A stretch of DNA of 63,966 nucleotides, filler included, from Phoronis australis (lineage: Eukaryota; Animalia; Phoronida): assembly GCA_002633005.1 (NCBI GenBank). It is 6 parts of 6 records of this genome, joined end to end, with 100 filler letters (N's around TTAATTAATTAA, not from the genome) between each part and the next. Parts side by side here need not be neighbours in the genome. Positions count along the whole stretch, not along the records: positions 1 to 19,600 come from NMRA01000876.1; 5 more parts are not named here. One strand, 5' to 3'. Positions 1-48,184 of the stretch are shown here, in pieces. Position 1 is the stretch's first letter, and each line of letters begins with the position of its first letter. The notes under the pieces were generated by a model. The model had not been told where the DNA came from. It did not search any database and saw only the letters and a program-made list of their open reading frames with translations. The translations under genes and the position numbers were made by a program.

Positions 1-792
1 GGTTTTTGGCCATAACACTAGTTATAGGAATCTGATTATGAGCGCGCAAGAGAAGACGGAACATATTTGCGACGTTTCGGTTACTCAAAGTTAATGAGCC
101 TAAACGTCAGAAAATATTTGTTTTCTCTTTCTCGCTTATAATGATTTTCAAGGGTTTCCGTCATTCAATTTCGGTAAGGTCGTCGCTTTCTCGCAAAACT
201 ACCGATTGGATGATCAATTACGCACTTATTTGCTCTCCGATTTAACGTTGATCATCGTCAATACACCTCCAAAAATTGCACATCGTCTTTGCGCAAACTA
301 CACTGAGATTTAAGTCTCCCGAAAAAAGTTGAAGATCGGATAGTGTTTAAAAGTCTAATTCTAAATTTCTCCAGTTAGTGCACAAATGAAGTAAAAGAAA
401 GTAGTTCTGCTTGTCGCGTCGGCTGTTGGTATCATTATCTCGATTTATTACCCACAACGCGTGACTGGACAAAGCCTTTTCAAATTAGCCGGTGGAGCGT
501 GAGACCCCTGAGGTCCCAATCGAGTCCTCACGACAACTTTGCGTTATGTAATTGTTGCTGTACGGCGTATAACTTTTATGCAACTGTACTTGTACACCAT
601 TAATTTTTTCATTACTATATTGTAAATTGCCGGTTTACAAACAGAGGCCGCCACTCCTATAGGCACGATCACAAAACTCCCGTGTGCATGCTGAATTTAG
701 AATTTACCACGGGATTTTCTCCGAGACTACCTCCACCCCTTGACGACTTACGACGTCCTAGTTTCGTCAGCGTTTAAACATCCTTCACTCAC

Positions 793-837
793 CAGTCTGA
801 TCCACACAATGGCATCCAGGATTTGGGTTTTCTCTTC
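793..837 (-). CDS. Exon 5: 45-nt nAChR-type exon (loop D region); gene continues left of the window
   Basis: Acceptor attatag, donor gtgagt. EEKTQILDAIVWIRL resembles the 45-nt DEKNQ(V/I)LTTN.WL exon of nAChR genes. Confidence 0.88.
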
Positions 838-1174
838 CTATAATTGAAACATTTGGTCACTCAATGATATTTAGTCAGCCGCTACGCGCTACAAACTGGT
901 TAACCATACTTCTCGGATAGAGGTAGACTTAACACGCCCAATGTACCGCGAAGAAAAATCTCCTATTTGTAGCATATGAAATAACCGTGCCTTGATTGAT
1001 TTCCACTGAGGAGATGATAGAAACGAGATCCATAGGGAGGTCAATGGTATGATCATTTCACTCTTTAACCATCATATGCGCACTTAATAATCTAAATCTT
1101 ACCACGAACGTGTTTATCAATATCTTTGTAAACACCATTATTTACATTTGTTAAAAGAATAGCGACCAACTTAC

Positions 1175-1311
1175 CAAGTCAAGTATTGTGTATAAAGACA
1201 AGCCAATGGAGACAACCACGTTGTTTTTGTAGTTTTTGAGAGGTCTGGCACTGCTGACATAGTTTCCAAGAAGGTGTTGTTGCAGCTTAGCGTCAAGATT
1301 TTCGGCACTTA
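1175..1311 (-). CDS. Exon 4: start of Cys-loop (nAChR-like) ligand-binding domain
   Basis: Acceptor ttgttttcag, donor gtaagt; 137 nt, phase 1 to 0. (V)SAENLDAKLQQHLLGNYVSSARPLKNYKNNVVVSIGLSLYTILDL matches the nAChR pattern L..LL..Y...RP.....V.V..GL.L..I.D. Confidence 0.88.
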
Positions 1312-2279
1312 CTGAAAACAAACGTAATACAGGAAAATCTACACAACTGATAGAAACAATGTTCTTGTCGACCGTTTTAAACTTAATTATGAGAACTTTA
1401 GTTGAACTGAAACTACGTTGATTCTGTGAGGGCGTCCGGACTCGGCCGTAAAATATAGTGCGTCATTAAAGGTTAATGCCGGGAATTCTGCACATTTGGA
1501 TAAACAACAAGAACTAAAATACGAATCTTTATATGACAGGATATCATGTTTTTGTAAAAATAATAATTCGAAACCCAAGCTTTCTCGAAACCCGGGGAGA
1601 CTTAAAGACGCATGGAACGCGAAAGCTCGTCAAAATATCTCTTAAACGATTCCTGGCGAAAGTACCATTACGCAGCATCTACATGTACTTTTGATAGAGT
1701 AATTCACTTTTCTCTGTGAGAGAATTACCACGAAATATCCAAAGTTCTCGTTTGTGGAATACGCGCAAAGGAAAAACTCTGTAGTCTCCACATAGTTTTT
1801 AATCTTCCTCCCACTTGTGGTAAACAAGCGCATGCGCCCACAGCCCTTCGACAAACAGTCGACTAACAAGAAGGATGTTAGCGATAGATTATCATGTGTG
1901 ATCGCATTCCGAATCTCAGGTTGACATTACAGTATGACGTAAGCCCATGAAGCAAGAGATTTCCCAAAGAGAAACCCCGGTGCATTTTAGAATATAGTTG
2001 AATACTACGACACCTTTGCAACCTATATTAAACACAAGTTGCCTCTTAACTAGATGACTAGTAGCCATTTCACCAAGAGACAAAACTTTTGGATACAAAG
2101 TTAAAAAATTTCCACGCGGTTTAAAGTGTTTCTGAGGTCGTTCTGTTGAATCTTTTTTCTCGCTACGCGGTATATACATGTATTTCGTATTTGAAGTTCA
2201 CCGAGAATGAAGTTATGTTATTTTGCTTCACTTGTGAAATATTGTGAAAATGCCCAATTTTAGTGAATAAGGCTTGGGA

Positions 2280-2520
2280 TATCCTTAAACTGCCACCCAT
2301 GTCTGAAACCATGGAATGGCCCCGGGCAAGACATGGTATTCCCTAAGATGCTACAGGAAGCAAGAGACAAGCCTTTCCAAATTCTGTCTAATCTTTATAA
2401 GGCTAGTCTTATACCAGGCTACATCACAGAAACTTGGACTAAGGCGAGGGTTGTTTCCATTTATAAACCTGCTAAGGATTCTTACTTCTAAACTGAGCAC
2501 TATAACTCTTGGAAGTGCTT
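2280..2520 (+). mobile_element. Degenerate non-LTR retrotransposon RT N-terminal fragment
   Basis: Reads GPGQDMVFPKMLQE...LYKASLIPGYITETWTKARVVSIYKPAKDSY, matching the PG.D...IP..W..A.V..I.K..K.DY pattern; interrupted by a stop. Confidence 0.65.
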
Positions 2521-4752
2521 ATTGGTTTGCCCCTCTTGCATATTTACCTCAGCAGTGAAGCTGTGCTAGCAGTTTACTGCATGCGGTGTAATGGGTAGTA
2601 GAATAATGTGCGAATCACTGATACTGTTTCTCACAAGAGCCATAATAGTGTATGCAACAGGTTAATGTCAAAAACTGGAATACTTTTGGCAATGCCAAGT
2701 GATGTTTTAGTGACAACCCTAAATCACAGACACAATTTCTACACAGAAATTGGATACGGTCACGACATGCTATGTCAAATAAGGAGACGCGCTTTGCCTT
2801 GTGGGATAAAGCAATAGATGAGCAGTTGACATATCGTTTTTGAATTTTTAAACCAAAAGAAAAATGTTTTGACATCAACAGAAATTCAAAGTCTTTAAGA
2901 ACAAACCGTAAATATATCTGTTGAACATGTTGGATTCTATTTCAGTGGCAGAGAGTCACTTTGAATAATGCATTTTACAATGTAGTCTGTTCTCGTGTTA
3001 CATGCTGCAAAAGCAAGATATCGTGAGATTCCACGAGATATCGCCATTATTTTCAATGACAGCATGTAATTTTTGCTACATTTTTTCGCTGCGACACAGT
3101 TACTGAACTCGACTTCAAGCGACTTCACTGCCATTTTATGCTGTGCGTTGTTATTGCAAAATCGCCTTCTTCGTTGCCAACTGAAGTCATTGGTCTATTT
3201 CTTAATTTTAAATCCAGGTGAATAATTCGTGGGAGTTTTGTAAATTCTTAATATACATGTATCTGTAATCACAGGAAGCCCATTAGCTCGCCCGAGTGGG
3301 ACTTGATCTATGCTACGTGCAGTAGTACGCGACCGTGTCTGCAGAGTTGATGAACAGAGCAAGACTGACTCTTGGTTGAAGAAGAGTTTTGCGTGCCCGA
3401 CTGTATTTGTTTCCGGCGTGTTGCTCATACTGAACAGATTTAAACTCTTCCTCGGCATACACCGTAAACATTTCTGCCACTGATAAGTGCACAGAATGAA
3501 ATGAAAGTGAATTCATGTGACGTCGTTTTATTTCGACAAATAGCTGTTTTACAAAAGTGATATCCAATTATCTAAAAAGTCCCTTTAGTTCCCAATATTT
3601 ACTCAAACGTCCGTTAACGCACACTGACATCGTAAACTAATGTGACTTATTTCTGAAGATACCGGTGAGTTAAGGATCTATGTAATGGCTTATATCTAGT
3701 GGGTCCAATTGTCGTTTAGAAAAGGCTGTACGTTTAGTTTTTGTGAAATTTTTAATTTCAACTTTCCCGTGCCATATATTGCCAAGTACATAGTTTTCGA
3801 ACTAAATGATTACTATTACCAGAGCCTCCCAAAATGCCCTTCGTGCGATGACATAGTCACGCATGCGCTTACATAGGCACGCATGCGCCTACATAATTGT
3901 ATCTCCCATCAAAGTCGCCATCTTTCCATTAACATTCGATTCAACCGGAGAAGCACGCGAGAATCACGGGACGTAATCGGTAAAGGGAGGCAGGGAGAGA
4001 AATTAATGACTAAGAGTGCAGAAATTGAAATTTGAAAGGCTAAGTAAGGAGCGATAAGTACTCCATTTCGGCTGGCGACTCTGGGGATTTGTTTTAGAAA
4101 ATTTATTTAAAAGACAAAGACGTTTGTTCTTGTCCCAATTTACAATTGCTGAAAAAGGTATAGTCAAGTTATTATGAGCGGATAACTGTCTGGAAATAAT
4201 TGACAGAAATTATCTAAGTAACTATCAATTACGTGCATATTCTCAGAGGCTGTGCACCTCTCCTCAAGGAAATTTAATTATTTTCCTGAAATAGTTTTTG
4301 GTAGCGTCAGATCAATTCTCTGACTCAAGAAATGTTTCGTGAAACAGATCATTGGATTGTATTACTGGACGAACCTTTCAAAACTAGTTCAATCGCACTG
4401 TGCGTTTTTTCTTCCGCAAAATGGAAGAGTTGGATTCGAGGCATAGTGGAAAATCTTTGCCCTGTCACGGAGCATAACGTGGACGCAAGAAATTCGCAAG
4501 ACAGTTGTGGTGAGATCAGCTTATGGAAGACGTTTTACTGACACAAGTTTACTGACACATTTACAATTCCATTTCAATCGACCAAGCACTATCCTTTCAC
4601 TAGCGTGACTTTACAAGGTTTGATGTGATCTCTTTTTTTCTCAAGTAAGGCAACCCACGCAAGGAATAATTGGGCCACCTACCTAAACTCGGGTGAAACA
4701 TGTACGCTACATTGACCATATTGAACGTGCCTGTGTAACTAGTAGTACCTAC

Positions 4753-4842
4753 CATCTGTAGGCTTTCCAGAAGCTGACGAGCTAGATGTTGTGGCGAAAC
4801 CACGAGTGTCATCTGTCGTTGCTTCAATGCGGTTGGTAGAAA
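4753..4842 (-). CDS. Exon 3: 30-codon Ser/Thr-rich linker
   Basis: Acceptor tttctcttacgcag, donor G|gtaggt; 90 nt, phase 1-1; encodes (V)STNRIEATTDDTRGFATTSSSSASGKPTD. Confidence 0.7.
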
Positions 4843-5140
4843 CTGCGTAAGAGAAACACTTGGTGTTAAGTTTAAAGATAGTGGGAAACAATTTCTTGTA
4901 TTTTTACTACAACAAAGTGACGAAATTCTTGTTCAGCTGCTCGTTATTCACTCAACAGAAGCAGAGCTACACGTGAACACAGCAAGTTGTAGCAGAAAGC
5001 GCAAGGGCGCGAAACCTGGTAGCAACGGGAGGACTGAAATTAGCTTGGACATCAGGCAGACGCCATTAACTTTACCTTATTTTTGCAATAACAGAGGAGA
5101 TTCCGTAAAAATTCTATATCTGGCTTTCCATGTACTAAAG

Positions 5141-6432
5141 AACAAGAGCAACGCGGAGCGTTGAAATGCGCCCACGAATGCATTGCAAATGGTGTGCTTT
5201 TAGGGTGATTTATTTGTATCATAAAATGGCCACTAGATGGCGCAAAACATACGATCCCTCCAAAAACAGGAACATGCCACACGTCATAAAACTCTGTCAA
5301 GAAGCTTCAGAGAAACAAAGGAAAACGGAATAAAATGAAATTGCCACTAGTGGGCACAGTGTTCGTTGGATCTGCCTGAAAGTCGTCGTCGTCTGCTGTT
5401 ATCTTCATGTAAATACACTTACTAAAGTTAGTAAAGATCCTGCAGTGGGTTTAAGACATACAACTATGGGCGCAAAACAAAACTACCACTAGGAGGCGCC
5501 ACAGTAGTCAGTCACCATCATCAAAGGCCGTCTTCACACTGAGAGCATATATGCCAATTTTCAAATGATTTGGTTGATACAGGGGTGGACACCAAAAACA
5601 AGATTTGAAAACAGCAAAAATGACCACTAGGTGGCGCAAAATACCTCAATTCCATCCAAAAACAGAAAGATAGCGTCATCACACCAATAGCTGCCTATAC
5701 TTAAAATTTTATGAAAATCTGTTGAGGACCTTTGAAGATACTGAGTTAAACGTAAAAACTAAAATTGCTACTAGGGGGCACAGTAATAGTCAGATCTAAC
5801 AGAAAGTCGTCGTCATCCGTGGTCAACATCACATCAATACACTTGCTAAATTAAGTAAAGATCCTGCGAACGGTTTAGGAGATACAGCTATAGGCGCAAC
5901 AAAAACAAAACTGTCACTAGGAGGCGTCCCAGTAGTCGAAATCATCGGAAAATCATCGTCAACCGTCCTCTTTATAGTAAGCACATACAAGCCAATTTTC
6001 ACAATCATCCTTTGAGCGGTTTGGTTGATAGAGGGGTGGACGTAAAAACAGACTCGAAAACAGTAAAAATGGCCACTAGGTGGCGCAAAGTACGTCGAAT
6101 CCATCCAAAAACAGGAGGATAGCATCATCTCACTAATAAGTGCCTACATACCAAATTTCATGAAAATCCGTTCAGGACTTTTGGAGGTACAAAGGAAAGC
6201 GTAAAAAAACGAAAATTGCCACTAGGGGGCACATCGGTAGTCAGATCCATCCGAAAGTTCGCTCATGCCGTCCCATACATGAATAGAACATATGTGCCAA
6301 ATTTCATGAACGTATGTCAAAGGGTTTTGGACATAGAGCAGCGGACGCCGGACAGACGAGGCCCGGAAAAACGGACGGACGGACGGAGATGATGGCATAA
6401 TGCGTCCACATATAAATATGTGGGCGCATAAT
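5141..6432 (-). mobile_element. Helentron-associated non-autonomous element (HINE/DINE-1-like), copy 1
   Basis: Subterminal IRs ATGCGCCCAC/GTGGGCGCAT. One end has hairpin atgcgtccacatataaatatgtgggcgcat next to (GACG)n; the other has stem-loop caacgcggagcgttg. Internal ~145-bp tandem core repeats and A/T-rich flanks. Confidence 0.8.
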
Positions 6433-6720
6433 AATGAGTGAGACCACTAATTCCGGAATAAACATGTCCGCGATTGTACTTCGGGGACCGTTTTTAGTTA
6501 TTCTATTGCTCATGGCCCTAATTTCGCCTATGACTGTATCATTAACTTGAACAGTTTTAACGGGCTGGGGTAAGTAGTCTTTGAAGGAAATGGCCGCACA
6601 CGCATGCGTATCACATGGAAGACCACAGCAGGAAGACAAGAACAGAGACAAAAGACAAAGATTACGGAATGGAGATTTTACGAACCGCTATCAATTAAAC
6701 AAATGGAAAAGGTACTCCGG

Positions 6721-7011
6721 TTAACGGTTGAAGCCATGGGTGCAACTTTTAAGTAACAGCCAAACGTCAAACAACGTTAGTAGGGTTAGCGCATAATCTC
6801 TCACAATCACGTTCAAGGCGGGTATGTCTCTATGCCATCCACCCCACAGTCCACTGGCGCCTAAGTGGAAAGTACACGTTATAGTGTACCATGTAAACTG
6901 AAAGTCATTATGGTTTCGTAAATGCCCCGAATTCAAATACGTCTCAGACAGATTCACCGTCCAGATACTCTGTATGGTACTCATGGGAGCTGACTCAACT
7001 TTTGATATCAA
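6721..7011 (-). mobile_element. Possible degenerate LINE APE-endonuclease fragment
   Basis: LSETYLNS...FTWYTI...WGG...DVWLLLK loosely matches the LSETWL / GY.I / GGG / LWL motifs of CR1/L2 endonucleases. Confidence 0.3.
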
Positions 7012-7458
7012 GGATTTTCAGCAAATTATGCATTAAGCTGGAGTAACCATCTGGGTTAGGTGTTTTAACTCTCTTTTATATAAAGTCGGTGAGTCAAAGA
7101 ATAGACTCATGGTTGAAAAAATCATTAAATTAAGATGTGAGAAGTCAAATACAGTGTATGTGATAAGTAAACCTCCTCAGAATATAGAATTCTAAACAGG
7201 AAATGCCAGCTGCGACCTCACGTGGCTGAAGTTGCACCGTGCGTGCGTGGAATTTGATTCTATTCGCCTGCTCCGCTGTTATTTCTTGGTATGGAACACA
7301 AGGCTTAGGGACGGTGGAATGTTTGTTTGGTGAAACGAAGTAAGCTTAGAACTGCATGGCAAGCGTATCAGCAGGTATTACAGTGCATTCGTATTAGCTG
7401 GGCGGTGACATTTTCATAACAAGTCAAATTCTCAATTTTTAATTTGGTGAATACCTAC

Positions 7459-8775
7459 CCAGTTGTGTTACTGAATTACTTGATTCTAGAGATGTGTCCC
7501 CTGCATCTGTGGAGAGGACTCTTACGCTAGAAGGAGTATTCGTCTGGACGATAGTCGTTGCATCGGTGCTCCTTAATTCAGTGTTCTCGTTTCGGCTCAA
7601 TTTCGACGGATTTGTGGTTGTTATGGGATCATTTGGATCTGGAGATATTCTCCATGGTTCAGTATAGTAGAAGTTTGCACTCGATGTGGTGATTGCCTGA
7701 GCTCGAAAGAAGGTATTGGTGTTTGTCAGTCCTGCTTGCTCTTTTGTGCTTGAAGTCATTGATGGAATCGTGACACTCATTGGAGCAATTGATTCTGAAG
7801 ACATGTCCCCGCGTGTCTGAGTGGAGTGGACACCTTCACTCAGTGAGGCAGTCGTCTGAATTAAACTCAGTGCATCGGTACTTGGTAATCCCGGAAGCTC
7901 GTTTGCGCTTGAGACCGTATACGGATGTGTGGTTGAAGCCGTATACGGAGGTGTGGTAGTCGATGGATCGTTCGATTCTGGAAGTGAGGCCCATGTTTCT
8001 GTAGAGTGGATGGTGGCACTCGACGTGGAAGTTGTCTGATCGCTGCTTGGAAAATCCGTGTGTTCATTTAGGCTTGAAGTTGTTGACCCATTCCCGTTTA
8101 TAGGCTTAGTAAGTCCACCGGTTGATACCGTACTCAAGTTACTTCCATGAGAAGCCACCATGTTTGCCGTGGGTCCAACACTGACCCTGACTGTTTGCGT
8201 ATTGTTCTCAGATTCGGTAGAATAGAAGCTTGCACTCGACGTGGTGGTTGTCTGAGCTCGAGCAAAAGTATTGGTGTTTGTCAATCCTGTTTGTTCTTTT
8301 GTGCTTGAAGTCATTGATGGAGTCGTAACACTCATTGGAGCAGTTGATTCTGAAGACCTGACCCGTGTCTGAGTGGAATGGACACCTTCACTTAATGAGG
8401 CACTCGTCTGAATTAAACTCAATGCATCGGTACTTGGCAATTCCTGGAGCTCGTTTGTGCTTAACGCCGTAGACGGAGGTGTGGTAGTCGTTGGATCGTT
8501 TGATTCTGGAGGCGAGGCCCATGTTTCTGTAGAGTCGATCGTGGCACTTGATGTGGCAGTTGTTTCATCGCTGCTTGGCAAATCCGTAACTTCATTTGGG
8601 ATTGAAGTGGTTAACCCATTTCCCGCTGTAATCGTAGTAAGTCCACCGGTTGATACCGTACTCAAGTTACTTTCATGAGAAGACACAACGTTTGTCGTGG
8701 ATGCAACACCTACCCTGAATGTCTGCGTGTCGTTATCAGACGTTGTATTACCGCTCGCAAATTCCGGTACCACAG
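7459..8775 (-). CDS. Exon 2: 439-codon Ser/Thr-rich mucin-like domain with internal duplication
   Basis: Lies within ORF 7439..8902. Acceptor ttttgccctgttgtag, donor G|gtaggt; 1317 nt, phase 1-1. Completes the signal peptide (..LSVAVVPEFASG|NTT). Confidence 0.85.
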
Positions 8776-10959
8776 CTACAACAGGGCAAAACAGGGCTCT
8801 ATATTTAGGGCGAAACGCCGTTGTATACTCAGGGTGAAACGCCGCACTATGTTCAGAAATGGCGGAGTGTGTCCTATCATTTACTAAGTTTGCATATGTC
8901 ATGACTTCTTTAACAACGTTTCACAAAAAATCCCGCTATTTCCCGAGTTCTTTGGATTATATGCCCATCATGGACCTCATCATTCTGTACAGGTCCCTTA
9001 AAGGTTGTTGCCATTATATGAGAGCTAAAATCACAACATGTACTTCCTGACATAATCATGCATTTTTCGTCAGAAACTTTGGTCTTTTTGGCAGGTCCAG
9101 TAAAGTCACTGGACTAAGGTCCATCACGTGAAATACTATTTTACTTTTCAAACCCTTCCACGAGGTAGAAATGTATAGAAGAGACAGAAAACAGTGCACA
9201 GTATTCCCACACGAGACAAAGAAGACAAACTACATTTTTGGGAACTCAGCAAACATGCATATCTCGTTTTAGACAGCACAATTTGGTTTTACTCGTTTAA
9301 AACCCATGAATATATGGCAGCACCATACGTTGTAAATCCCATCGTTATAATTCGCTTCCATAACAATCTTTAAAGCGGCAATAAGTTCTCATTACGTCCA
9401 CAAAACAAACGCAAGATTTAAACAAACTATTACAAAACAACACCGCTTTACGCTGGTCTCAGCTTGTTCCTTACTCGGATAAGTCACTTTTGGCTTTGTA
9501 CAGAACTGACACTTTTTCACTCCCTGCGACCATATTCTAGAGGTTGGTCTCAAGCCACAGATATTATTCAGTTCTGTCGAAGTCATTAACGAAAAAGTTA
9601 AGCCCAATTTCATAACAGAAATCGTCCTAAATCAACTGTTTTTTGTGAAGGAAGGTGGGTTCATTGCCGCTTTAAATATTGAGTTTGGCACCAACGCATG
9701 GACGACGAACAAACGTACAGTCAGATAAACGGATAAACAAATAAACGACACTATACGGCTAGAAAGAGGGAGCAAACAGGTAGACATACATGCATGCGCC
9801 ACCGTACGTAGAACATTCATCGTAATGCTTTCAGACTATATTTAGTCACGCTCAGTTGTCACATGGAATACACGCACTTAATATAATTCAATTAAGTCAA
9901 AACAACGGGAACAGTCAATTCCAACTCCTAACTCCAAAATAATGATCATTTTTTAACTCGGAAAGGTGCTAACGTACATGCAAGGAAATGAAATCGTCAA
10001 CGTCCGGGACCTAGTTTCGCAGGGCTTCACTAGTCACCGGCACGCACGGTGTTCCACTGCAGACCAAGTCAACTTGATGATCACTCACAGACAGGCGCTG
10101 GATAATCTCACTACGTTGGTTAAGGTGGAAATCTCTCGCCGATGCTCGTTACCTCAGAAAGCAGTTCAGGCTTTGGTGTGCTTTTAACTACTTCCTAAAC
10201 CCACCACCAGGAGAGAACAAACCTAGTGCCGCAAATTTCCGTAAATAAAAGCGTGACGTGGGTCTAGCCTATTCAGAAAATAAAATTGCTCGTGCCAGGA
10301 CGGAAAAGTAAATTCAGCCATACGCTTGCCCCCCCCCCAGTCGTACGACGTAGGCCTATATTTGGCATAAGATACGTAGCCTGTGTCATGGTAAATGTGT
10401 TCTCTGGTAAGTAAGTTTCCCAAACAGTTAAAAACCTTCCCAATACCCAGGTCTGACCTATCTCAGACCCAGATTGACCTTCTACAAAATTTCTTAAGCG
10501 TAAAGTAAAAAATAAATATATCATTTATGAGCAAGTCCCATTTTTAACAATTCGCTTACTCATAAATGAGTACATAAGGGAACTTCTACTTACTGGGGAA
10601 TCTATTTACCGAGACACTGGCTGTTAAATCGAAAACTCCACGGTCATTATACGGTTACATAAGGTAACTGAATTGTTTCATTAATAAATTGCACGGCAAT
10701 GAGTTATGCATAATTATCACATGCGCTTTGAATCAGTCGAGTGTAATAGAGTCACGTTATATTGTTTTCCGTATTCCACTCCCGGACTACTTCAACAGTG
10801 CCCTCTGACATGGAAAGTTCAATAGGTAGGTCAATGTCGACTCGACATCGTTAGCTAGTTCGATCATCAAACCAAAATAGTTTAAAGTAATATAATTGCA
10901 GCAGTAGAAATAACACTCAAGATACAATCAGGTCCCAAACGTAACATCTGGTACAAAAC

Positions 10960-11330
10960 AGTTAATGCATGACACCTCTGTCTCAGTTTTCAATTGCTAA
11001 ATACGATATCGTCTGCAACTCAGGCGCCGATTCTTCAGTAACTACACTGTCAAATGACGTTGTTATTTAACTAGTTAACTAATTTCAAAATAATCTTGAA
11101 TAAACCCCTCCAGCTGTAAGTGCTTGGACAGCCGTCGCGAGAGAGAACACACCTTGAGTCCAATGTAACGCTGCTCACGAGAATGGAGACGAAGACATTC
11201 GTCCATATGACATGTGAATTGGTAAACAATGTACATTTGGCCTCTGATAGTAGTCTTTTTACGAATGTGGTTGTTTTTCATGACAAGATCATTTTGTACA
11301 TCAACATGACCGAAAAATAACTGGGCAAGA
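10960..11330 (-). mobile_element. Penelope-like element GIY-YIG endonuclease remnant
   Basis: ORF 11075..11281 reads VMKNN...IVYQFTCHMDEC...RYIGLKVCSLSRRLSKHLQ: VY-x-YIG with Cys/His spacing typical of PLE endonucleases. Confidence 0.7.
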
Positions 11331-12853
11331 AATAGTAGACAATACCATCATTCGCTAAATTGAAAATGACACATTTCGGCTAAATATCCGTCACGAAAAT
11401 CCTGTGTTAAAAAGCAGCTCACAGGTGTGTATCGCACGCTGGCTCAATCTGTTTCCATAGGGTTGCAGCCTTCCTACCGTGTGTTGCATTTACAGGCTCT
11501 GCTTGTATGCCCGTCTTCCCGTTGTCACGTGTATTTCACTGTTTATTTCGCTCCCTGTATGTTCATTCCACTCATTGCCTGATGATGTGACATGCAGTCT
11601 CGAAATATAGCTAGTGTTTTAATTTGTTTTTTTGTTATGTCTCTCGGTGCTTTACTACATAGCTGCACACCTGAAGAAAGGAGATTGTTCCGACACTACG
11701 AGCGAATCAGTATCAAGCTTTCAAACAAAAAGCTAAGACGTTTTCAACGATGTTTGTGTTAACGAAAGGCTGCAACCGAACTACACTTATGTTATAGAAG
11801 ATGAATGTCATTTTCAATTGAGTGTCCGCTTTATGACTACCTAAGAACAACTTTCAAGTCAATAATTATACTGTAAATTTACTTTGTAGACATCATGTTG
11901 AAATGTAGTATTTTAAAGTTGGTTCAGTATTTGTTGGCTGCTGGTATATAAAGGGACGATGGAAATTCATTATTTTTGTATTTAAAACCATGTATATGGG
12001 CTGGAGGCCCGCTTTGCACAACAAGGAAAATAAGCTCACTCAACACTATTACGTCACTTAGCTGAATTTGTACAGTGGTGACCTCTTCATAACACATCCA
12101 TTACACGTACATGAATGAAGAACATCGTTTTTCAAAACTCTTTTACCGGAGGGCTCGCCAAAATTTTGGAATAACATTATCAGGCGATTTCTCAAAATAC
12201 TTTGAGCAAAAAAATGTACAACAATGTCGTCATGTCATGTTATCTACCGTAAAATTCATTTTCCGTGATACTGTAGAGTGTAGAGATGTATTGCGAAATC
12301 GGACAGTTCCTTTGGGTAGGGGCATTTGCCGGGAACAATGGACCCTTTGAATTTGCCAAAGGTTAGTGCTGCCACGTCAAAGATGCCACTATACTCAACG
12401 GCATCTGCCCCTGGACTACAGAGTATTCATAGGAAAGTATACTGCATTTAAAAGCCACGCCATGTGTTTATTTGTATTCCCTTCTCGAAATCAACTTTGA
12501 CTGGCTTGTTTTTGTTTAGGAACTTAACAGGTAAGGTCATTGTAATTTCGTGGATATGTAGCAGCGGTAGTAATCGGGAGCATCAGCAAAATATCACTTT
12601 CTTGTTTTCATTTGGAACAACGCAGTAAGTAATCGGAAAATGTACCTACGATTCGTTTAAAATGAATCGTACGTCTGGAAGCGCAGTAGGGTGTTTCTAG
12701 ACGTTCAGTTCAGCTAATGCTAAGTTCAATGAAGGCCACCACTATTAATCACGATTACGTGGACTCTTCTCTTTTCTTTTCACGGAATCACAGACACGTA
12801 ATGGCACTGGCAGAATCCTTTTTCTTGAAATAATAAAATATAAACCTACTCAC

Positions 12854-12896
12854 CGACAGATAGCGTAAGCAAGGCGATCGCTGTAGAGGCTTTCAT
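12854..12896 (-). CDS. Exon 1 (signal peptide) of mucin-domain Cys-loop receptor-like gene
   Basis: ATG at 12896 gives MKASTAIALLTLSV plus 1 nt, then a GTGAGT donor (phase 1). Basic N-terminus followed by a hydrophobic core. Confidence 0.8.
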
Positions 12897-13354
12897 TTCG
12901 AGAAGTAAGTGATGCTCCAACTACTTCTAAGCGATACGTGTACTGAAAATTTCATAACAAGTGTTATTTAAGATTTTAGGAAAAAGTCCTCATTTGGTCA
13001 ACTTACAAATAACACTTTTAGATATTATACTTTATACAATGTTCTTCAAAAACTGCTAGAAATTGTCTTAAAATGGCCTACTTATGCACGAGGGGTTATA
13101 AAATTAGGATTTTCATAATGCAATCAATTAAACTTGTACCAAACGAAATCGAAATGATAATTTAGGAACACGGTTTTCGATATTTCATTTAAAAATTTAC
13201 ATGTATATCAAACAAAATTTGGCCACGTATTGATATTGTTGTTTTGCTATGCATGTACCGTTGAATCATTTCTGAAAATTTTTTACTTAAACGACATGTC
13301 GTCAACATTTAAACCAGATTACATAATCACAACCGGTTTTACACACATTCTTTC

Positions 13355-14378
13355 ACACAGGTGAGGCAACATGACCGCTGGACACTAAACAGGGTCATCG
13401 GCCCTCCAAGTAGAACTGACTCACCACAAAACACGACCAGAGTGTATCAAATGGACCTTCAGGAGCAGAAAATGGGGCCGATACACCTAAAACATAACTA
13501 ACCCACCACGAAACAGGACAATCGGAGACCGAACGCGACCGCCTGACAAAATATTTTCTATGGCTGTGAGATTTTGGTTCTGGTGGTACTTTTCCCCAAG
13601 AAGCAGTTATACACGAACGCGTTTTTGACTAAAACGTCAAATTGGACAAATTGGGGAGTTCTTTTGTTCTCAAAACTAACATAATGAATAACATTATCAT
13701 CAATTGGTTCAAAAATATGTTTACTTGTTCATTTTTTACCCACATCGGCGCAAAGATGTATATTTAGTAAACGCAATAAGGTTAGTTATGAGGATACTCT
13801 ACCTGAAAACCAGAACGCCCGTTTTTTGACTTGACTAAAACGTCAAATTTGAAAAAATGAGTTTCATTTTGTTCTAAAACTAACGCAGTGGATAAAATTA
13901 TGATTATTTACCTCAAAAGTGTGCAACGTGTTTGGTTTTTGGTTTGATTTATTTCTTTTAAATGTTGACCTTGTTTCAATTGTCACATACAGCATCAGAG
14001 TCTGGTAAAGTAAAGGTCTGAAGCGCCGCGTTTTAAAATGCGATCCTGTAGCGCACAAAAGATGTCAGTGAATTAATCAGCTTGAGACCTGCATACAAAT
14101 AGCTCCATTATCCGTGTAGGCCAACATTGTCAACTGGCCGGATTTAAAACTTAACCTGGTTGTCGTTGTTTCAATCCCCGGAGGTCATGTCCAGTCTCCG
14201 GCGTTCCTGTTTAGTGGTGGGACGGTCATGTTTTTAGGGGCGTCAGTCCCATTTTCTGGTGCGACGGTCACATTTGATTCCCGTAGGTCGATTATTTTGT
14301 GGTGAGTCGGTCCCATTTGCAGGACCGGTAGTCATCTTCTTGACCGTGGTCCGGCGGTCATGTTGTTTCTCACACGTG
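13355..14378. mobile_element. MITE-like element with ~200-bp imperfect terminal inverted repeats
   Basis: 13355-13545 (cacacaggtgaggcaacatgaccgc...) is the approximate reverse complement of 14170-14378 (...gcggtcatgttgtttctcacacgtg). Same family as 23143-23395. Confidence 0.6.
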
Positions 14379-14519
14379 AGTATATAGTCAATCCTTTGAT
14401 GGCTAACCCACTACTAGTGAGACTGGAATGTGGTTATACCAGCTCATTGGTCGGACTGACCACGTGATGTTGGAGAAATTCCAAAGATTTCTCCAAATCG
14501 ATCCTTATCTCGTTTATAG

Positions 14520-14711
14520 CATGCTCGCACCCAGGGGGGGGGGGGCGAAATGGGCAAAAAGGTCCCCTCAGAGAAACAAAAAGTCCGAGGGAACGCGACA
14601 AAAGTCCACTAAAAAGACATAATTTTTTAGTCCTCCCGCTTATTTGTCAGCAAAAAGTCCACATCACCACCATCTCGAGCCTCTCGATATTAAAGGCTGG
14701 GTGCGCGCATG
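14520..14711. mobile_element. Small MITE
   Basis: TIRs catgctcgcacccag / ctgggtgcgcgcatg with a poly-G subterminal run. Confidence 0.55.
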
Positions 14712-17575
14712 TAAAGGGTATGTTTACATGTAGCATGGACAAGATGATGTCACCGATTCAAAGACAGGTCAAAGTCAAACTCTACATGTTCTGTGCTTCC
14801 AAAAATACAGTCTATAGAGTTAAATTTGACGTTTCTGTACATGTACATATTTGGCAAAAGCACAGACTGGTGAATCAATGTAACTTATCAACCTGAAAAC
14901 CACAATAGGTTTGGTAGTTATTCAGTTATGATCAAAGCAAAAACAAGCACATTGTGTACCGACATTTAATACAATGCATAGGTATTTGACCTAATCGAGG
15001 TTACTTGTCCAAGTTGAATGGCCCATGTATTTGTCGTACGTGTGGTTAAAACCAGCTCCAAAATAGAGAAGCACAGAACGCTAGCGTCTTCAGTTGGCAT
15101 TGCTTGTCTCATCAGCAACGTGGGAAGTCCGTTCCAGTGTAAGCCTACTATATACATACCTCCCTTTGAGTACCCTAGACATATTGTTTACGCTTGCTTG
15201 ATATAGTGTTGATTAGTAGCGAAAATATTTTTCCTCGACTTCAATACATATTCACTACCTAGATCACCATAAACTGCAAGCGCACTTCCGAATGTTTCAA
15301 TTGTACTTCTTTTACATTTAAGTGCAGTTTATGCTGGTGCTGATTACAATTCTACTCCATTCCGATCTGAACTCACCACCAATGCCCGTTATGGAAACCG
15401 AAGTGACCGAGCCCTGGTCAGTGTCTGTACGTTTTGAATGTTAAGCTCTGTCGAAAAAACTAAAAGATCAAAGCCATAATTAATGACAATTCAAACCTGG
15501 TAACTAGAGTGGCCCGTCCTGGAACTAACTTACCAATTTTATGGTGGGAAGAAAGCAACGCTGGCACCTTTGCCTTGGTCAAAGTAGCACAAATAAATAA
15601 GACTGGCGGTTATGCGCAACAAGACTATGAACCGTTGGAGACACGGAAGGGTCGTATATCCTCAACCTAATAGTGAACCATTGTGTAGCCTTATAGAAGC
15701 GCTGGTTATTCAACTTTTGATTGCACAATCGGACAGGTAGCCGAATCACCATTATAGTTAATAAAAGCACATAAAAGAAAGGATATCGGGAGGGGGGGGG
15801 GGCTACTCAGTCTTTTGGCCTACAATGAACGTCAGTGACTAGAAAGACGCCATATTGAAGCTAGGCATGCATGGAAATGGGCTACAGTTTATACTCTCAT
15901 TCTGAATAAATCCACTAAACAAGCGCCAGTGTAATGGATCACACCGACACGGCTACCGACTGCGTAATTGTCCTTGGCAGAGTATAGGTACGATGCATGC
16001 AACATCAAAACTTGAAGTCGGTTGCTCGGAGAAGTTTGGAAGCGAATTGTTAATTGATTTCAGTTGGACTCTAGCCGCCACAACTTACCCTTCCACAGTT
16101 TTTACAGCGGACATTTGCGGCTGTGACTGTCACCCATTCCTCCAGTTGCCAGAATGTTCGCCGACTCATCCTCAAATTCCACTCTGACTCTGGACGAGGA
16201 TGGACGCATTCTCAGCGAAGCGGTCGGAGTAAGCCACAGCTGCGTCTTACAGAGGCGGTCCGTGCATAATATAGCGAGGCCCAACCAAACTGAAGCTTAA
16301 TGGACTGGTTGGGAATGAACGTCCACGAAATGGTGACTTTATCATACGTTCTGTAACCCCCAAATTCTATGGACATTTGAAGCTAGCCGTTACCCGCATA
16401 ATAACCACGGGTAGTAGCTATTGTATGGGAAATGCGGAGGGGAAATAGCTACACCTTCAAGTGATTCCTCGTAAGAGACAGGGATATTTCTTGAAGAGAC
16501 CGTTTTATTTTAAAGCTTCAATTACAATTTTTGTCAGATTTTGGCAAGTGTGTGGGATTCTATCCGCAGGAAGGGGATTATTTTTTTTCTCTCCAGAACA
16601 TTTGACCCTGCTGTAACATAACGTACGGTAATCAGCTATTCTTTAAAGTGAAAACTAAGGAAAAATTGAAAAGAATAATGCCGTAATACACAAAGTGTAG
16701 GTCTACAATGTATTTACAAAAGTCACATAAATGTACATACTAAGGTAGAAAGCCAGCTAGCTGTATGAAGACTATCGTGAACTCTGGACGTTAAACACCG
16801 AAGCTTCACACAACTCAGGTAGCTCAGATCGTCACCTCATACGGTCGGCGGGGGTGTATTTGTGGGAATCAAACGACACTCAAACTGTCCGTTACAGTCG
16901 TTTAAGTAGCAAAACAATCTAATAAACCTCGTTTTTGCGTAATTCTCCGCCTTTTGTACGAAAGAAAGCCCTGTCGCGGTGGGAGATGATGACAGCCTCG
17001 CAGCAGATTGGGTTTGTTGGTATTAAAATACTAAAAACTTATAACGAAATAATTCAGTTCAGACTGTTATGGTATGCACACAACTTCGTGGAAGACTGAG
17101 AAGAACAGTTGTACTGAAAAATCGGGGAAATCTGCCAATACGTTACGCAATGGCACCGAAAGCCGACATAAGAATCCACCACAATTTTAGCAGCAAAATA
17201 ACGGTAAAACGCCAGCTTTCCCAACATCGGTAAATAATTGTTTACTCAAGGAAGAGTTTATTTTTTAATGTCATCACTAATTTTGGCGACGACAGGCCAA
17301 GAAGAAGTACGGTGCCACTGAACAGTTAGACTATAGCAACAGTTCAGGCATTTTCTAATACAGAACGTGTGTCAAGTTTGGTGGGAGGTTTGAGGAATTT
17401 GTTGAAGAAAATTGCCAGGAAACTGATTTACTCGTGTTTTTGAATCAGAAAAGCCAAGTTTTTTTAGCCGTGACCAAATTTCCATGCAAAATGGTGGCTG
17501 TCGCTTGCTTTCAACCCCTGTCGCCTGCTGACTAAGAAAACGGATGTACATGTAATTTCAGGTGGCTGTCAGTCC

Positions 17576-17731
17576 CGGTGCTGTAGTTGGGCGTAGGCGC
17601 ACGTAGGCGTAGCCAATCACCTTTTGGCATTTGAACGTAGCGCCTACGCACCGTAAGTTACGTTCAGTGCTCAAGGTGATACGGTGGGCATTGGGCGCCT
17701 ACTTACCTCTAATTTTACTACTACAGCACTG
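17576..17731. mobile_element. hAT-like MITE
   Basis: TIRs cggtgctgtagt / actacagcactg, flanked by near-identical 8-mers tgtcagtc / tgtcagac. Confidence 0.6.
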
Positions 17732-18545
17732 TGTCAGACAGATCAAAGTTGCAAAAAAGTAGCTGGTAAGGGGCGTACTATGACCACATTTTTAAAATTA
17801 AGAGCGAACGAGCATTCTGAATCTGCCGCCAGATTTTTTCTAGCACTTGCCTGGAAGTAGTTAATTTGGGGAGAAAACTGTCAAATTTGGTGGTTTTGGT
17901 CCTGTTTTGTGTGCCGTTTTTTCCGATGTCAATTAGCCGATTAAAAATCTGTAGCAGAATTAAGTTTCAGTTATCATGAGTAGTGCTTTTGAGTTGGGAA
18001 ACTCAAAAAACCTTTTGTTTTTTTTTCAGACTCTCGATAAGGACGTGAGATTAGGACTCGTCTCCACTTGGGTCTGAGTCGGCAGCTAAAACCCTGCAAT
18101 AACTGTAGTATGCCTCCTTCGGAAGCCGGAAGGAGTGGAATTGAACTGACGGATTGAGGTCACCCAGGCCAAACGTTGAACCGACGGACTAACGTTACCA
18201 AGACCAGTAAGAAACTCGCGCGATGGCCGGTGCACTACCTGGGACCATGGCGGTGCCGAAAAGGGCGCAACGAAGATCTTTGTGGAGCGGGGGGGGGGGC
18301 GAGTTTGTGTGAACGATGCATTTTATATAACAGATAGTCCAAAGGCACCAGGCGCGTTTAAAAGAGTTACCCCCAGCTCAGATGACGTAATTTATCTTGG
18401 GATGTTTATGTAAAGCACTGCCGAATACAATAGAAACGTACTGCGTCGTTCGGTTGTGCCTTGGGGCACGAAGTATAGGCTAGCGGGTAATCGAGTGACG
18501 GAGAAAGCAAACCGAAACCTGACGTCAATGCGTTGCCATTGAGTG

Positions 18546-18619
18546 CAACGCCTCCATTGACCTTTCCGTCCTTCGTAGTCTACTCGGTACGAAGGACGGG
18601 AAGGTCAGTGGAAGCGTTG
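18546..18619. repeat. 32-bp inverted repeat (long hairpin)
   Basis: caacgcctccattgacctttccgtccttcgta, 10-nt loop, tacgaaggacgggaaggtcagtggaagcgttg. Three non-Watson-Crick positions, two of them G-U on the + strand. Confidence 0.85.
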
Positions 18620-19600
18620 ATAATTTTGTTGGAGTAAATTAACCCCCCCCCCCTCCTCCAAATCTTTTAGAAACACAAGTTCTGAACTGCAATGGATATG
18701 TGTGTGCAGGGCAAGGCAGTTACGGTCGGCAAGACGTATAGTAGATGATATCTTAAATCGTGGATCAGTGATGACGACTGGACAAACACGACGCGTTCAA
18801 CACATGGTTTGTTTGTAATGTCATCAGGCATGGCGATATTCTTGGAAGCGACTTTTGTGCGCAATACATTTTCTAGTTCAGATACTGTACGCAAACTGGT
18901 GCAAGTAAAATTGCAACCGTCTGTAAAACCACCTGAGCAATCGTACCGATTGAACCATGAAAACATGTGCAATGCATGTGTACACTATAGCAGAGCATGC
19001 TGCCGCGGATCTGAGAATTTTGTTAAAGGGTGATACCAGGCGCTCACTCTCGTCTCTTTTAGATTTTTGACTGAGTGCTGCAGCGAAACAAAATAGTTAT
19101 TTACAGACATGGTACTTGTCAAGCTGTCGACGGCGTTACTCTCTACAATTGCCGGGAAGATCCAAAAGAACGCACAGGGCAATACTTCGCAAAATCGCAT
19201 TTTTAGCGTGAATTATTTTCAGAAAACATGGGTTTTCTTTCGGACACATGTCAATCTAACTTGTGTATTGCGTGTTTTTGTATAGGATGCAATGGGGCTA
19301 TTCGGAAAATCTACAATAACTAGAGGGCGTGCGTGTACTAGTGGTGATAGATTAACAGCCTCGATTTCGCGCGCCCTTTAAATACATGGTGAAATGGCTT
19401 GCAGCCGTGCCAGCTGAATCTGAGATTGCGTAAAAAGGGTGCTTCTATGAGAGGAAGTAAGCACGACCTCATACAAAGGTAAGGTTTGTGATTATTTTTA
19501 CGATTATTCCATGATTATTCTACCGATGCCTGTTAACTGAGGCACTCGCCGAAGTCGACTTCGCGGCAGTCAGTCGCCAGCCAGAGTCTGGTTAATCTTT

Positions 19601-19700
19601 NNNNNNNNNNNNNNNNNNNNNNNNNNNNNNNNNNNNNNNNNNNNTTAATTAATTAANNNNNNNNNNNNNNNNNNNNNNNNNNNNNNNNNNNNNNNNNNNN
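19601..19700. other. Artificial contig spacer (N-TTAATTAATTAA-N)
   Basis: Identical 100-nt spacer also at 23043-23142, 34361-34460, 45298-45397 and 56972-57071. Confidence 0.97.
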
Positions 19701-20146
19701 AGACTGGTAATAACTAAATGGCGAAATTCTCGTTATAGGATGGCTTGGCAACCTTATAAACTTGTTAATTTGCCTTCATTCTCGGTCTGCATGGGGGATG
19801 ACTACTTGGCATTGAATTCTGCTTCCACTCAGCCATCATTGCAGGGAAGTCTGTGGTCATTTTGTCTGAATACTTTTGACAAGTACTGTACATAAACAGA
19901 ACTTTTTAATGCCAGATTACACATATATACATCAATTTAATGACACATAATCGATTATACGTTGCTTTAATCCTGTCACCTGCAACAGACCCAAAACTGA
20001 CGAACATTGGTGCTAATCATCATAAATTAGCAACAGATGTCAGGTAAACTACATAGTCCTATTGAAGAAGTCATCGAAGTCTCGAAGATCTACTAAAGGT
20101 AATTTGTGATTGCTGTACTATGGCAATTGGGCCATAATTTTTTCTG

Positions 20147-21537: not shown

Positions 21538-22830
21538 AACAAGAGCAACGCAGAGCGTTGAAATGCGCCCACGATTGCACCGTATACGGTATCCTTCTAG
21601 GGTTGTTTATTGGTACCATCAAGTGGCCAGTAGAGGGCATATATGTAGTATGTTGTACTTTGCAAAATGGAAAGGCATGGTCATTGTCTCCTCAATAGGC
21701 TAGGGGCAAAATNCGTAAAAAAATAAAATTGCCACTAGGGGGCACACTGGTAGGCGGATCTGTCCAAAAGTCATCATCGTTTGTTGTTAACATCATACTT
21801 ATTAAATTTCGTAAAGATCCTGCGAACGGTTTAGGAGATACAGCCATAGGCGCAAAAAAAAACAAAGCTGCCACTAGGAGGCGCCACAGTAATCCAAATC
21901 GTCTGAAAATCATTGTCAGCTGTCTCCTTTATAGTAAGCACATACATGCCAATTATTACAACCATCCTTTGAGCGGTTTGGTTGATAGAGGGGTGGACGC
22001 AAAAATACAGACTCGAAAACAGTAAAAATGGCCACTAGGTGGCGCAAACTATGTCGAATCCATCCGAAAACGGGAGGATAGCGTCACATCACTAATAGGT
22101 GCTTACATACCAAATTTCATGAAAATCCATTCAGTACTTTTGAAGATACAAAGGTAAGCGTAAAAAACTAAAATTGCCACTAGGGGGCACACCGGTAGTC
22201 AAATCCGTCTGAAAGTCGTAATGTTCCGTTGTTAACATCACATAAATATACTTACACAATTTCGTAAAAATCCTGCGAACGGTTTAGGAGATACAGCCAT
22301 AGGCGAAAAAAAAAACTGCCACTAGGAGGCGCCACAGTAGTCGAAATCGTCGGAAAATCATCGTCAACCGTCCTCTACATAGTAAGAACATACACGCCAA
22401 TTTTCACAATCTTACTTAGAGCGGTTTGGTTGATAGAGGGGTTGACGCACAAAAACAGACTCGAAAAAACTAAAAATGGCCACTAGGTGGCGCAAACTAT
22501 GTCGAATCCATCTGAAAACGGGAGGATAGCGTCATCTCACTAATAAGTGCTTACATACCAAATTTAATGAAAATCCCTTCAGGACTTTTGAAGATACAAA
22601 GGTAAGCGTAAAAAACTAAAATTGCCACTAGGGGGCACACCGGTAGCCGGATCCGTCCGAAAGTTCGCACATGCCGTCCCATTCAAGATGGAACATATGT
22701 GCCAAATTTCATGAACATATGTCAAAGGGTTTTGGAGATAGAGCAGCGGATGCCGGACGGACGCCGCCCGTACGGACGGACGGACGGAGATGACGGCATA
22801 ATGCGTCCACATATAAATATGTGGGCGCAT
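21538..22830 (-). mobile_element. HINE/DINE-1-like element, copy 2 (extra partial core unit follows to ~23040)
   Basis: Same termini, (GACG)n and core repeats as 5141-6432. Confidence 0.8.
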
Positions 22831-23142
22831 AAAAATAAAATAGTCACATTTAAAGATGCACGAAGATTCATTGATGAAGTCTAAAGACACAGAGACAAAC
22901 GCAAAAAAATTGCCACTAGGGGGCACAGTCATATTCGGATAAGTCCAAAACTCATCAGCAGCTCCTCACAAAGGTCTTTTAAGGGTTAAAGAGATTCAGC
23001 CATGGATTCAAAAAACAATAAATCACCAATGGGGAGGGTGGGNNNNNNNNNNNNNNNNNNNNNNNNNNNNNNNNNNNNNNNNNNNNTTAATTAATTAANN
23101 NNNNNNNNNNNNNNNNNNNNNNNNNNNNNNNNNNNNNNNNNN

Positions 23143-34043: not shown

Positions 34044-34360
34044 AACAAACAATACACAGTTGTCATGCACACCCTACACTTTATATCAAACACCTCGTCC
34101 TAGACCATATAGCACAAACAATACACAGTTGTCATGCACACTCTACACTTTATATCAAACACCTCGTCCTAGACCATATAGCACAAACAATACACAGTTG
34201 TCATGCACACTCTACACTTTAGATCAAACACCTTGTCCTAGAGCATATAGCACAAACAATACACAGTTGTCATACACACTCTACACTTTAGATCAAACAC
34301 CTCGTCCTAGACCATATAGCACAAACAATACACAGTTGTCATACACACTCTACACTTTAG
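34044..34360. repeat. 69-bp minisatellite, ~4.6 copies, truncated by spacer
   Basis: Unit acaaacaatacacagttgtcatgcacactctacactttatatcaaacacctcgtcctagaccatatagc; explains the repetitive ORF 33952..34416. Confidence 0.9.
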
Positions 34361-39938: not shown

Positions 39939-41475
39939 ACATAGTGTACCTAATTATCGGACGGAACCTAAATATCGGACATTTCATAGAATCGTACTTG
40001 AAGCATAATCTGAGAATTAAATGACGCCAATTTTTGGGCACTAGTCGGATATAATGGACCCTAACTTATTCCAAACAAATCCACTAAATCACTAAATGTA
40101 GGTCTAAATGAATGATTTTGGTGTCGTTGCATTCCTCAGACATCTGGCTATCCGTACAAATGCTTTTCACGACCCTCAATTACTCTAGTCTATAACTACG
40201 CTGTTCCGAACTCGGTCCACTTTAGCCACGCACATCGTGAAATCGGCAGCCATTTCAGGGAACTTACTGTATCTAGCGACATCTATCAGCGATTTGCTAC
40301 AACACACGCTGTTCCTTTTTCATCAGTCAACGTCATTGGTCGATTTCGTCAATTATTAACGACAGTCGTTATTAATCATCGTACGTCTGCTCTCGTCATC
40401 ACCTTCGTCGTCTCTCTCACGAATGTATCTGTCATCATCATGTTATCGTCGCCCATGTTGACTGATGAAAAAGGAACAGGGCGTGTTGTAGCAAATCGCC
40501 AATAGATGGCGCTAGATATAGTAAATTCCCTGAAATGGCTGCCGATTTCACGATGCGCGTGGCTAAAGTGGACCAAGTTCAGAATGGCGTAGTTATAGAC
40601 TAGAGTAATTGAGGGTCGTGAAAAGGATTTGTACGGATAGCCAGATGTCTTAGGAATGCAGCGATACCAAAATCATTCATTTAGACCTACATTTAGTGGA
40701 TTTATTTGGAATAAGTTAGGGTCCATTATATCCGACTAGTGCCGCTTTTTGTTCCGTTGTAATGCATTCAATGTCCGGCACCGTCTGGTTTTTTTACAGC
40801 GTTGCCTCGTTTTGATTTCACCGAGAGAGGGTGCAATTTAGACCCCCAAGTCGGCCTAAAATGGACGATCGCATAAATCGGTTATAAAAGTTGAAAATAA
40901 AATCTTTTTCCACAATGAAACCATCTCGTTGAACTGACAATATGTCACTGTTCCATTTTTTCATTTGTTTTTAAACTCAAGTCAAACCCCGACCGCGCAC
41001 GTGCGGGTGTCATATCAAGAAGCCGAAGTGATACTAAAAACTGCAGTGAGTTTGAACGTGCCTTAGTCGTCTGCACTAATTCATCGAAACGACTTGGCGC
41101 CGTCATCAGACTTTATTTCATGGATAATTTTGTTGCGAATGGACCTGTGTTCTAGCAGCATATATGTCAAAACACTCGAGCTGAAATTTGGCTACAAGGT
41201 GCCCGCGGCCATTACGTGGTTAGTCAGTTTTCTGCGGTGTGGCGTATGGGGAAACATGGTTCCGATATTTAGGTTCTCAGAAGGTTTGTTTGTTGTGTTT
41301 TTTAAAGATCAGTCGGAACATAAATGTGGCTTTCAGTGACAAGATATAGCAACAGAACAATTCCTTGAAGGTAAGTCTTTATTTCAGAAAAAAATTTACA
41401 ACAATCCATAGTATTTTCAATTAAATATAATGCAAAATGTGCCAAAACATCCGATAATTAGGTCACTTGACTGTA
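39939..41475. mobile_element. Tc1/pogo-like MITE copy 2, interrupted by a nested element
   Basis: Matches 26052-26875 apart from a ~707-bp insertion. Confidence 0.75.
40037..40743. mobile_element. Foldback MITE with ~300-bp arms (possibly Merlin-like)
   Basis: Ends ggcactagtcggatataatggaccc / gggtccattatatccgactagtgcc; flanks aatttttg / gctttttg; absent from the copy at ~26140. Confidence 0.8.
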
Positions 41476-46037: not shown

Positions 46038-46283
<246 letters not shown>

Positions 46284-47207: not shown

Positions 47208-47357
47208 CTTGTATCTGTCAGGGTGCTTCAGATAATCTACAAACTCCATGACCTCGACCTTGGCCTCATGTAGTCCCGCAACGTCCCTAAAGGTCACAGC
47301 CTTACCGTCCGGCTTGATGATGTCACCGCGCGTGAACTTGGCCTTGCTCTGACTCGA
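47208..47357 (-). CDS. SPG7: Paraplegin exon, duplicate copy B
   Basis: Same protein as 47930-48079 (one synonymous change); part of a ~720-bp duplication joined at n47679. Confidence 0.6.

Positions 47358-47902: not shown

Positions 47903-48184
<282 letters not shown>

Follow-up and report, generated by a model that had tools for sequence, protein, structure and literature searches.

The minus strand of positions 1–13500 of a 63,966-nucleotide stretch of Phoronis australis DNA (assembly GCA_002633005.1; the whole stretch is hereafter the window) was read, and its exons were rebuilt by script with phases and splice sites checked. What lies here is likely, judging from domain matches, the 5′ end of a Cys-loop-type receptor subunit gene, in which two Ser/Thr-rich, mucin-like exons (E2 and E3) separate the signal-peptide exon (E1) from the exon that opens the ligand-binding domain (E4). 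An initial annotation had interpreted E2 and E3 as a switchable cassette. That interpretation is partly supported: the mucin exons belong to a Cys-loop gene and are included in RNA, and the switch is so far unsupported. The features of the locus are as follows.

12896–12854, minus strand: coding part of E1, 43 nt (14 codons plus 1 nt), start codon and signal-peptide n- and h-regions, donor gtgagt, phase 1
8775–7459, minus strand: E2, 1317 nt, 439 codons, acceptor ttgtag, donor gtaggt, phase 1-1, mucin-like
8740–8213 versus 8212–7658, minus strand: tandem duplication within E2, 82% identical, with indels of 24 and 3 nt
7458–7436, minus strand: read-through of the E2 donor, six further codons, then a stop overlapped by an ATTAAA hexamer at 7443, which may mark intronic polyadenylation
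4842–4753, minus strand: E3, 90 nt, 30-codon linker, acceptor acgcag, donor gtaggt, phase 1-1
1311–1175, minus strand: E4, 137 nt, acceptor tttcag, donor gtaagt, phase 1-0, V-S-A↓E motif and start of the ligand-binding domain
837–793, minus strand: E5 (predicted), 45 nt, acceptor ttatag, donor gtgagt, phase 0-0, frame open after E4

The ends of E1–E4 are all GT–AG, and the reading frame stays open in all four exon combinations (E1-E4, E1-E3-E4, E1-E2-E4 and E1-E2-E3-E4). The rebuilt exons bear out that both Ser/Thr-rich exons are of phase 1-1 and that skipping them joins E1 to E4 in frame with a V-S-A↓E cleavage site, as initially annotated. E5, an exon overlooked earlier, is predicted to carry on the ligand-binding domain; with it, five exons in a row have an open frame and canonical splice sites. 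A genomic in-frame stop lies nine codons 5′ of the E1 ATG, and a scan of 1312–20000 for first exons that resemble a signal peptide and end in a good phase-1 donor returned E1 alone. Between E2 and E3, no first exon of signal-peptide type came up in either this strict scan or a relaxed one; E3-E4 thus depends on E1 or E2 upstream of it, which favours a single gene. One weak first-exon candidate (3065–3002) from the relaxed scan was ruled out, since it lies downstream of E3, which splices to E4. A scan for additional hidden phase 1-1 exons found none but was uninformative, as its cut-offs would reject E2 and E3 too. In the full form, 488 residues stand ahead of the first ligand-binding-domain helix, 469 more than in the skip form (E1-E4).

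The family of the gene is read from E4, which matched Pfam PF02931 (Neur_chan_LBD) over profile positions 3–40 of 216 with an E value of 1.9e-4. Of its 33 PDB matches (E up to 10), 16 were to 5-HT3A, with a best E of 0.004, and 15 to nicotinic subunits, 31 in all. These matches, which place the start of the ligand-binding domain in E4, support the earlier claim that the Ser/Thr-rich exons sit in a Cys-loop subunit gene; the best matches of this 45-residue fragment indicate that the product probably belongs to the cation-selective branch. E5 alone, too short an exon, gave no Pfam or PDB match. Of the ligand-binding domain, the window covers just the first ~55 residues, the remainder lying past the window's left end, and the rest of the channel, with the Cys loop, the loop C cysteines, the four transmembrane helices and the M1-M2 filter, would be encoded outside it. 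In a search of 5.8 billion proteins, restricted to longer lengths, none of 21 candidates proved to be a relative of E4 and none of 7985 a relative of E2; no E4 relative was found among 1.84 billion representatives, a search of the ESM Atlas with E4 and E2 gave no usable match, and in metagenome contigs, sets of 587 and 106 pattern matches yielded no relative. These failures are weak evidence, because the queries were short or of low complexity.

E1, E4 and E5 measure 43 nt (phase 1), 137 nt (1-0) and 45 nt (0-0). With phases 1, 0 and 0, they appear to fit the plan of nicotinic acetylcholine receptor (nAChR) genes, a signal-peptide exon followed by a ~140-nt exon and a 45-nt exon, and E5 presumably resembles the third exon of those genes. 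Introns 1–3 are described as ancestral and common to all vertebrate nAChR genes (PMC6354393). Since E4 retains V-S-A↓E and the exon predicted after it has 45 nt and phase 0-0, the earlier proposal of an insertion into ancestral intron 1 is a reasonable one; E2 and E3 would have been inserted there, and E2 would then have been duplicated internally.

Both inserted exons are mucin-like in composition. E2 contains 39.5% Ser plus Thr (46% Pro, Thr and Ser) and six N-glycan sequons, E3 contains 45% Ser plus Thr (48% Pro, Thr and Ser), and both are free of Cys. Neither has a hydrophobic segment (highest 19-residue hydropathy of 0.63), and no Pfam family was matched in either. Long, Pro/Thr/Ser-rich, Cys-free, non-hydrophobic and repetitive, with two ~180-residue copies in E2, the encoded sequence has the properties of a mucin-like (PTS) domain, and by its composition may carry dense O-glycosylation. 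The 438-codon open frame of E2 lies far beyond those of 2000 shuffles (longest 201, mean 73) and is therefore no chance open reading frame. Its duplicate copies keep the frame through both indels and differ at 29 of 132 synonymous versus 45 of 396 non-synonymous sites (ratio of non-synonymous to synonymous change, dN/dS, 0.47; Fisher p 0.0036). E2 is under coding constraint, that is, purifying selection.

Splicing was assessed in four public runs: X1, in which 0.07 of the sequence words occurred, as contigs, and X2–X4, chosen by species label, as raw reads (18–19% of each run read). None of the runs listed as sharing the sequence was recorded as RNA. With all four runs aligned at 88%, the output was dominated by intronic repeats, and none of the 15 joints listed, out of 336, lay between exons. 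When X1 alone was aligned at 96%, 166 contigs were placed with five joints in total. One contig, at a depth of 12.8 and with 53 letters on its shorter side, joins E1 to E2 at 12854/8775; another, at a depth of 12.2 and with 67 letters on that side, joins E3 to E4 at 4753/1311. Both joints have CT..AC ends on the plus strand, equivalent to GT..AG on the gene strand, exactly at the predicted sites; because introns are removed so precisely, X1, which is labelled ‘RNA?’, contains spliced sequence. Of the other three joints, two fall in repeat regions and the third lies within E2 (8001>7763); E1>E3, E1>E4 and E2>E4 joints were absent from the five.

By depth arithmetic, all X1 cover on E1–E4 amounts to three contigs of 156–161 nt. 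At 12854/8775 and 4753/1311 the splice sites are borne out by RNA-derived contigs, and the E2 donor (7459) and the E3 acceptor (4842) are predicted only; the E2>E3 junction and the 3′ end of E2 have no X1 cover, which is no evidence either way. Inclusion was found in two of the two informative contigs and skipping in neither (one run, in contigs, which drop rare variants), giving an upper 95% bound on skipping of 78%. For the plain, short-linker and full-mucin isoforms initially proposed to arise by splicing, inclusion junctions are therefore present, 12854>8775 among them, and skipping junctions (12854>4842 and 12854>1311) were not seen in X1, in data too thin to refute them. Exon cover in X2–X4 was near nil (in X2, ~260 bases fell on the bin that contains E4; in X3 and X4, none) and is uninformative on splicing.

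The third exon contig of X1, at 8001>7763, runs back 239 nt at a depth of 17.6, shifts the frame and lies off splice sites. Its reading as a back-splice or an allele was set aside on account of the last two properties; the join may be chimeric, or may stem from an allele or paralogue whose repeats are laid out differently. The E1>E2 contig carries 46 letters at its 5′ end that have no match in 1000–13000; they may represent an untranslated exon lying upstream, for which the stretch from 12913 upstream has AG sites at 12942 and 12920, or a chimera. X2 contains a few reads on E2 (7524–8765, ~1200 bases) whose first mates lie on the strand opposite to that of the X2 E4 reads, and which may be antisense RNA, DNA or a paralogue.

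Signal-peptide cleavage was judged by hand according to the (−3,−1) rules, with a strict site placed at residues 15–25. By these rules, E1 supplies a basic n-region and a hydrophobic core and is followed by (−3,−1) sites, a site rule that 78% of random continuations also satisfy. The skip form is predicted to be cleaved at V-S-A↓E after residue 17. Inclusion yields A-S-G↓N after residue 23, with Pro at −6. The N-termini given in the initial annotation were confirmed for both forms; a further (−3,−1) candidate, unmentioned there, follows residue 15 of the full form, which would be cleaved after residue 15 or 23. Candidate sites of the E1-E3 form follow residues 16, 17 and 22. When random open genomic continuations were joined to E1, a (−3,−1) site was found in 3886 of 5000 (78%), and the same held at 375 of the 419 in-frame points of E2. 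Because the whole hydrophobic core lies in E1, nearly any downstream sequence completes the signal peptide. A good cleavage site in both splice forms is no more than chance and, as an argument for a switch, does not discriminate. The V-S-A↓E start of E4 fits an ancestral second exon, and it may equally be a leftover or a site still in use.

We judge it an evenly balanced call that the locus contains the 5′ end of a single gene for a nicotinic/5-HT3-type Cys-loop subunit and that the usual transcript of this gene, E1-E2-E3-E4, adds a ~469-residue mucin-like extension. That transcript would continue into E5 and beyond, with a predicted E2>E3 junction, and would place a stretch of ~469 residues, predicted to be disordered and likely O-glycosylated, between the signal peptide and the first ligand-binding-domain helix. 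The N-terminal helix of the pentameric class of ligand-gated ion channels (pLGICs) sits at the membrane-distal rim of the pentamer, so each subunit would raise a mucin-like bristle over the extracellular vestibule. Most likely, such a bristle would act as a spacer or shield that alters surface expression, spacing, clustering or trafficking, or that protects the receptor on a mucus-covered surface, and would not itself take part in ligand binding.

Several points weigh against this interpretation. The Pfam score of E4 (21.3 bits) is below the whole-protein cut-off of 26, the query being a fragment. The E2 donor is the weakest of the four (2.5 versus 4.1–5.3 on a weight matrix), and possible read-through from it into the stop and ATTAAA hexamer counts in the same direction. 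No contig spans E2 to E3, leaving room for the two junctions to stem from different transcripts; each junction is one ~160-nt contig from one run, maybe a single molecule, and the 8001>7763 join means that the X1 library may make chimeras. Small N-terminal insertions or tags can lower nAChR surface expression (PMC4786271), and a 469-residue insert may for that reason not be tolerated.

Regulated skipping of E2, or of E2 and E3, that produced plain, short-linker and full-mucin subunits in appreciable amounts appears somewhat unlikely to us. Every exon combination is in frame with a plausible cleavage site, E4 still starts V-S-A↓E and offers a complete cleavage region to E1, and E2 is very long with a weak donor, all as a cassette would have it; in mouse Gabre, six splice variants are reported, all in the insert-bearing exon 2 (PMC11641399), and the absence of skips from two contigs limits skipping only to less than 78%. 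However, the contig that contains the E1 donor runs to E2 and the one that contains the E4 acceptor comes from E3, neither of the two skipping. The symmetric phases, which the initial annotation took as a sign of a switch, do not discriminate, because phase 1-1 is obligatory for any coding exon inside a phase-1 intron and thus shows compatibility with insertion, not regulation; the symmetric phase and the frame kept on skipping that were found here are necessary for a cassette exon but not sufficient. The cleavage sites argue no further, given that 3886 of 5000 random continuations provide one and that V-S-A↓E could just as well be what remains of the ancestral second exon.

It is improbable, in our estimation, that E2 instead serves as an alternative last exon encoding a secreted mucin-like protein of ~459 residues, with the channel made from E1-E3-E4 or with E2 spliced on part-time. 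The E1>E2 and E3>E4 junctions would fit, as would the missing cover over E2>E3 and the weak E2 donor, and with 10 poly(A)-type hexamers in 11541 nt of the strand, one would fall within 25 nt of the donor with a chance of ~2% (a post hoc figure). Against this, the poly(A) site is predicted from the hexamer alone, in-frame stops shortly past a donor are usual in AT-rich introns, the E1>E3 junction was not seen in X1, and E2 and E3 share composition and phase, as expected for one continuous linker. We consider it very improbable that the gene does not encode a channel subunit at all and yields a mucin-tailed soluble product akin to acetylcholine-binding protein, or is a decaying copy. Just ~55 residues from the beginning of the ligand-binding domain lie in the window, protein and metagenome searches found no relative, and one of the three X1 exon contigs is frameshifted; yet the frame stays open and the splice sites canonical through five successive exons, selection on E2 is purifying, and soluble forms are a minority of the family. 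A wider proposal, a possible one that we advance tentatively, is that the gene switches, by splicing or by intronic polyadenylation where E2 ends, among a bare subunit, a short-linker subunit and one with a ~470-residue O-glycosylated mucin bristle, and possibly a secreted mucin, as a CD45-like switch on a cation-type Cys-loop channel; if so, the isoform mix would set the glycocalyx height of the pentamer and access to its vestibule.

Beyond the exons of the subunit gene, which lie in sequence with GT–AG introns and ~40% GC, the following were recorded in the window.

5141–6431, in the E2-E3 intron: dispersed ~1.3 kb repeat element, not a protein-coding part, with further copies at 21538–22836 and 61776–63079
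46110–51408, minus strand, lying upstream of the subunit gene in the window: exons of an m-AAA protease gene that resembles paraplegin (SPG7) (best PDB match paraplegin, E 7e-21; FtsH_ext, E 0.004)
34045–34360: tandem repeat with a 69-nt unit (4.6 copies, 97%), open in one frame of the plus strand, adjoining a gap, no Pfam match
40037–40743 and 41493–41990: long imperfect palindromes (76–84%), likely foldback or miniature inverted-repeat transposable element-type elements

The three copies of the ~1.3 kb non-coding element are 74–79% identical and contain an internal ~440-nt repeat; in the RNA runs the element is very abundant and strongly one-stranded, with a depth in the thousands. The paraplegin-like ATPase exon occurs twice (open reading frames at 47408 and 48184; 46955–47678 versus 47677–48401, 96.7% identical around an N), probably through assembly overlap. 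Between 19601 and 57071 there are five assembly gaps, each made up of two runs of 44 N around a 12-base AT spacer. Several duplications flank single Ns, such as 29844–30934 versus 31699–32792 (98.9%), which suggests haplotype or overlap artefacts. Neither these gaps nor these duplications occur in 1–13500.

To our knowledge, animal Cys-loop subunits normally begin almost directly with the ligand-binding domain. The P. australis gene is like 5-HT3A and nAChR subunits in that E4 aligns to their first helix and strand and, as it appears, in that a short phase-1 signal-peptide exon is followed by ~140-nt and 45-nt exons, but the solved chains match within ~50 residues of their start, unless a tag is fused, whereas 488 residues precede the match in the full form here. 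No mucin-bearing Cys-loop subunit was found in the literature searched, which left most subscription papers and database annotations uncovered, and invertebrate proteomes may hold unremarked cases; terminal extensions were discarded in PMC4795631.

Rodent Gabre, which encodes the epsilon subunit of the γ-aminobutyric acid type A (GABA-A) receptor, has a 483-residue insert in its second exon (PMC1975676), described elsewhere as a Pro/Glx repeat of ~400 residues (PMC9312946). The insert exon has six splice variants, and whether the insert is translated is unknown (PMC11641399). The phoronid and rodent genes share a lineage-specific, repetitive, low-complexity insert of 400–480 residues near the N-terminus of a Cys-loop subunit. 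They differ in branch (nicotinic/5-HT3-like here, anion channel for Gabre), in composition (Ser/Thr-rich and mucin-like versus Pro/Glu-rich) and in layout, with two separate symmetric exons in P. australis; splice variants are documented in Gabre and were not seen here. DeCLIC and other prokaryotic pLGICs likewise have an accessory N-terminal part above the ligand-binding domain, which can modulate the channel there (PMC9897478, PMC12664993). Theirs are folded periplasmic domains of bacteria, in contrast to the Ser/Thr-rich, predicted disordered exon cassette described here.

Exons A, B and C of CD45 and the variant exons of CD44 are symmetric and Ser/Thr-rich, lie in N-terminal or stalk positions and allow the O-glycan load to be tuned by splicing. 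They are the model for the switch proposed above, but belong to single-pass rather than pentameric proteins, and skipping, documented there, was not seen here. From rodent Gabre, an N-terminal insert of low complexity, encoded in a spliced exon, is already known for a Cys-loop subunit; what differs here is the mucin-like make-up, the two symmetric exons and the nicotinic/5-HT3-like branch. A transcribed, constrained mucin-like extension as long as a subunit would be, after rodent epsilon, the second independent large gain of low-complexity sequence at the first intron. Its separate symmetric exons would provide a clean test of the effect of such a tail on assembly, surface expression and gating, and, if skipping proves real, the gene would offer an ion channel with a splicing-tuned glycocalyx.

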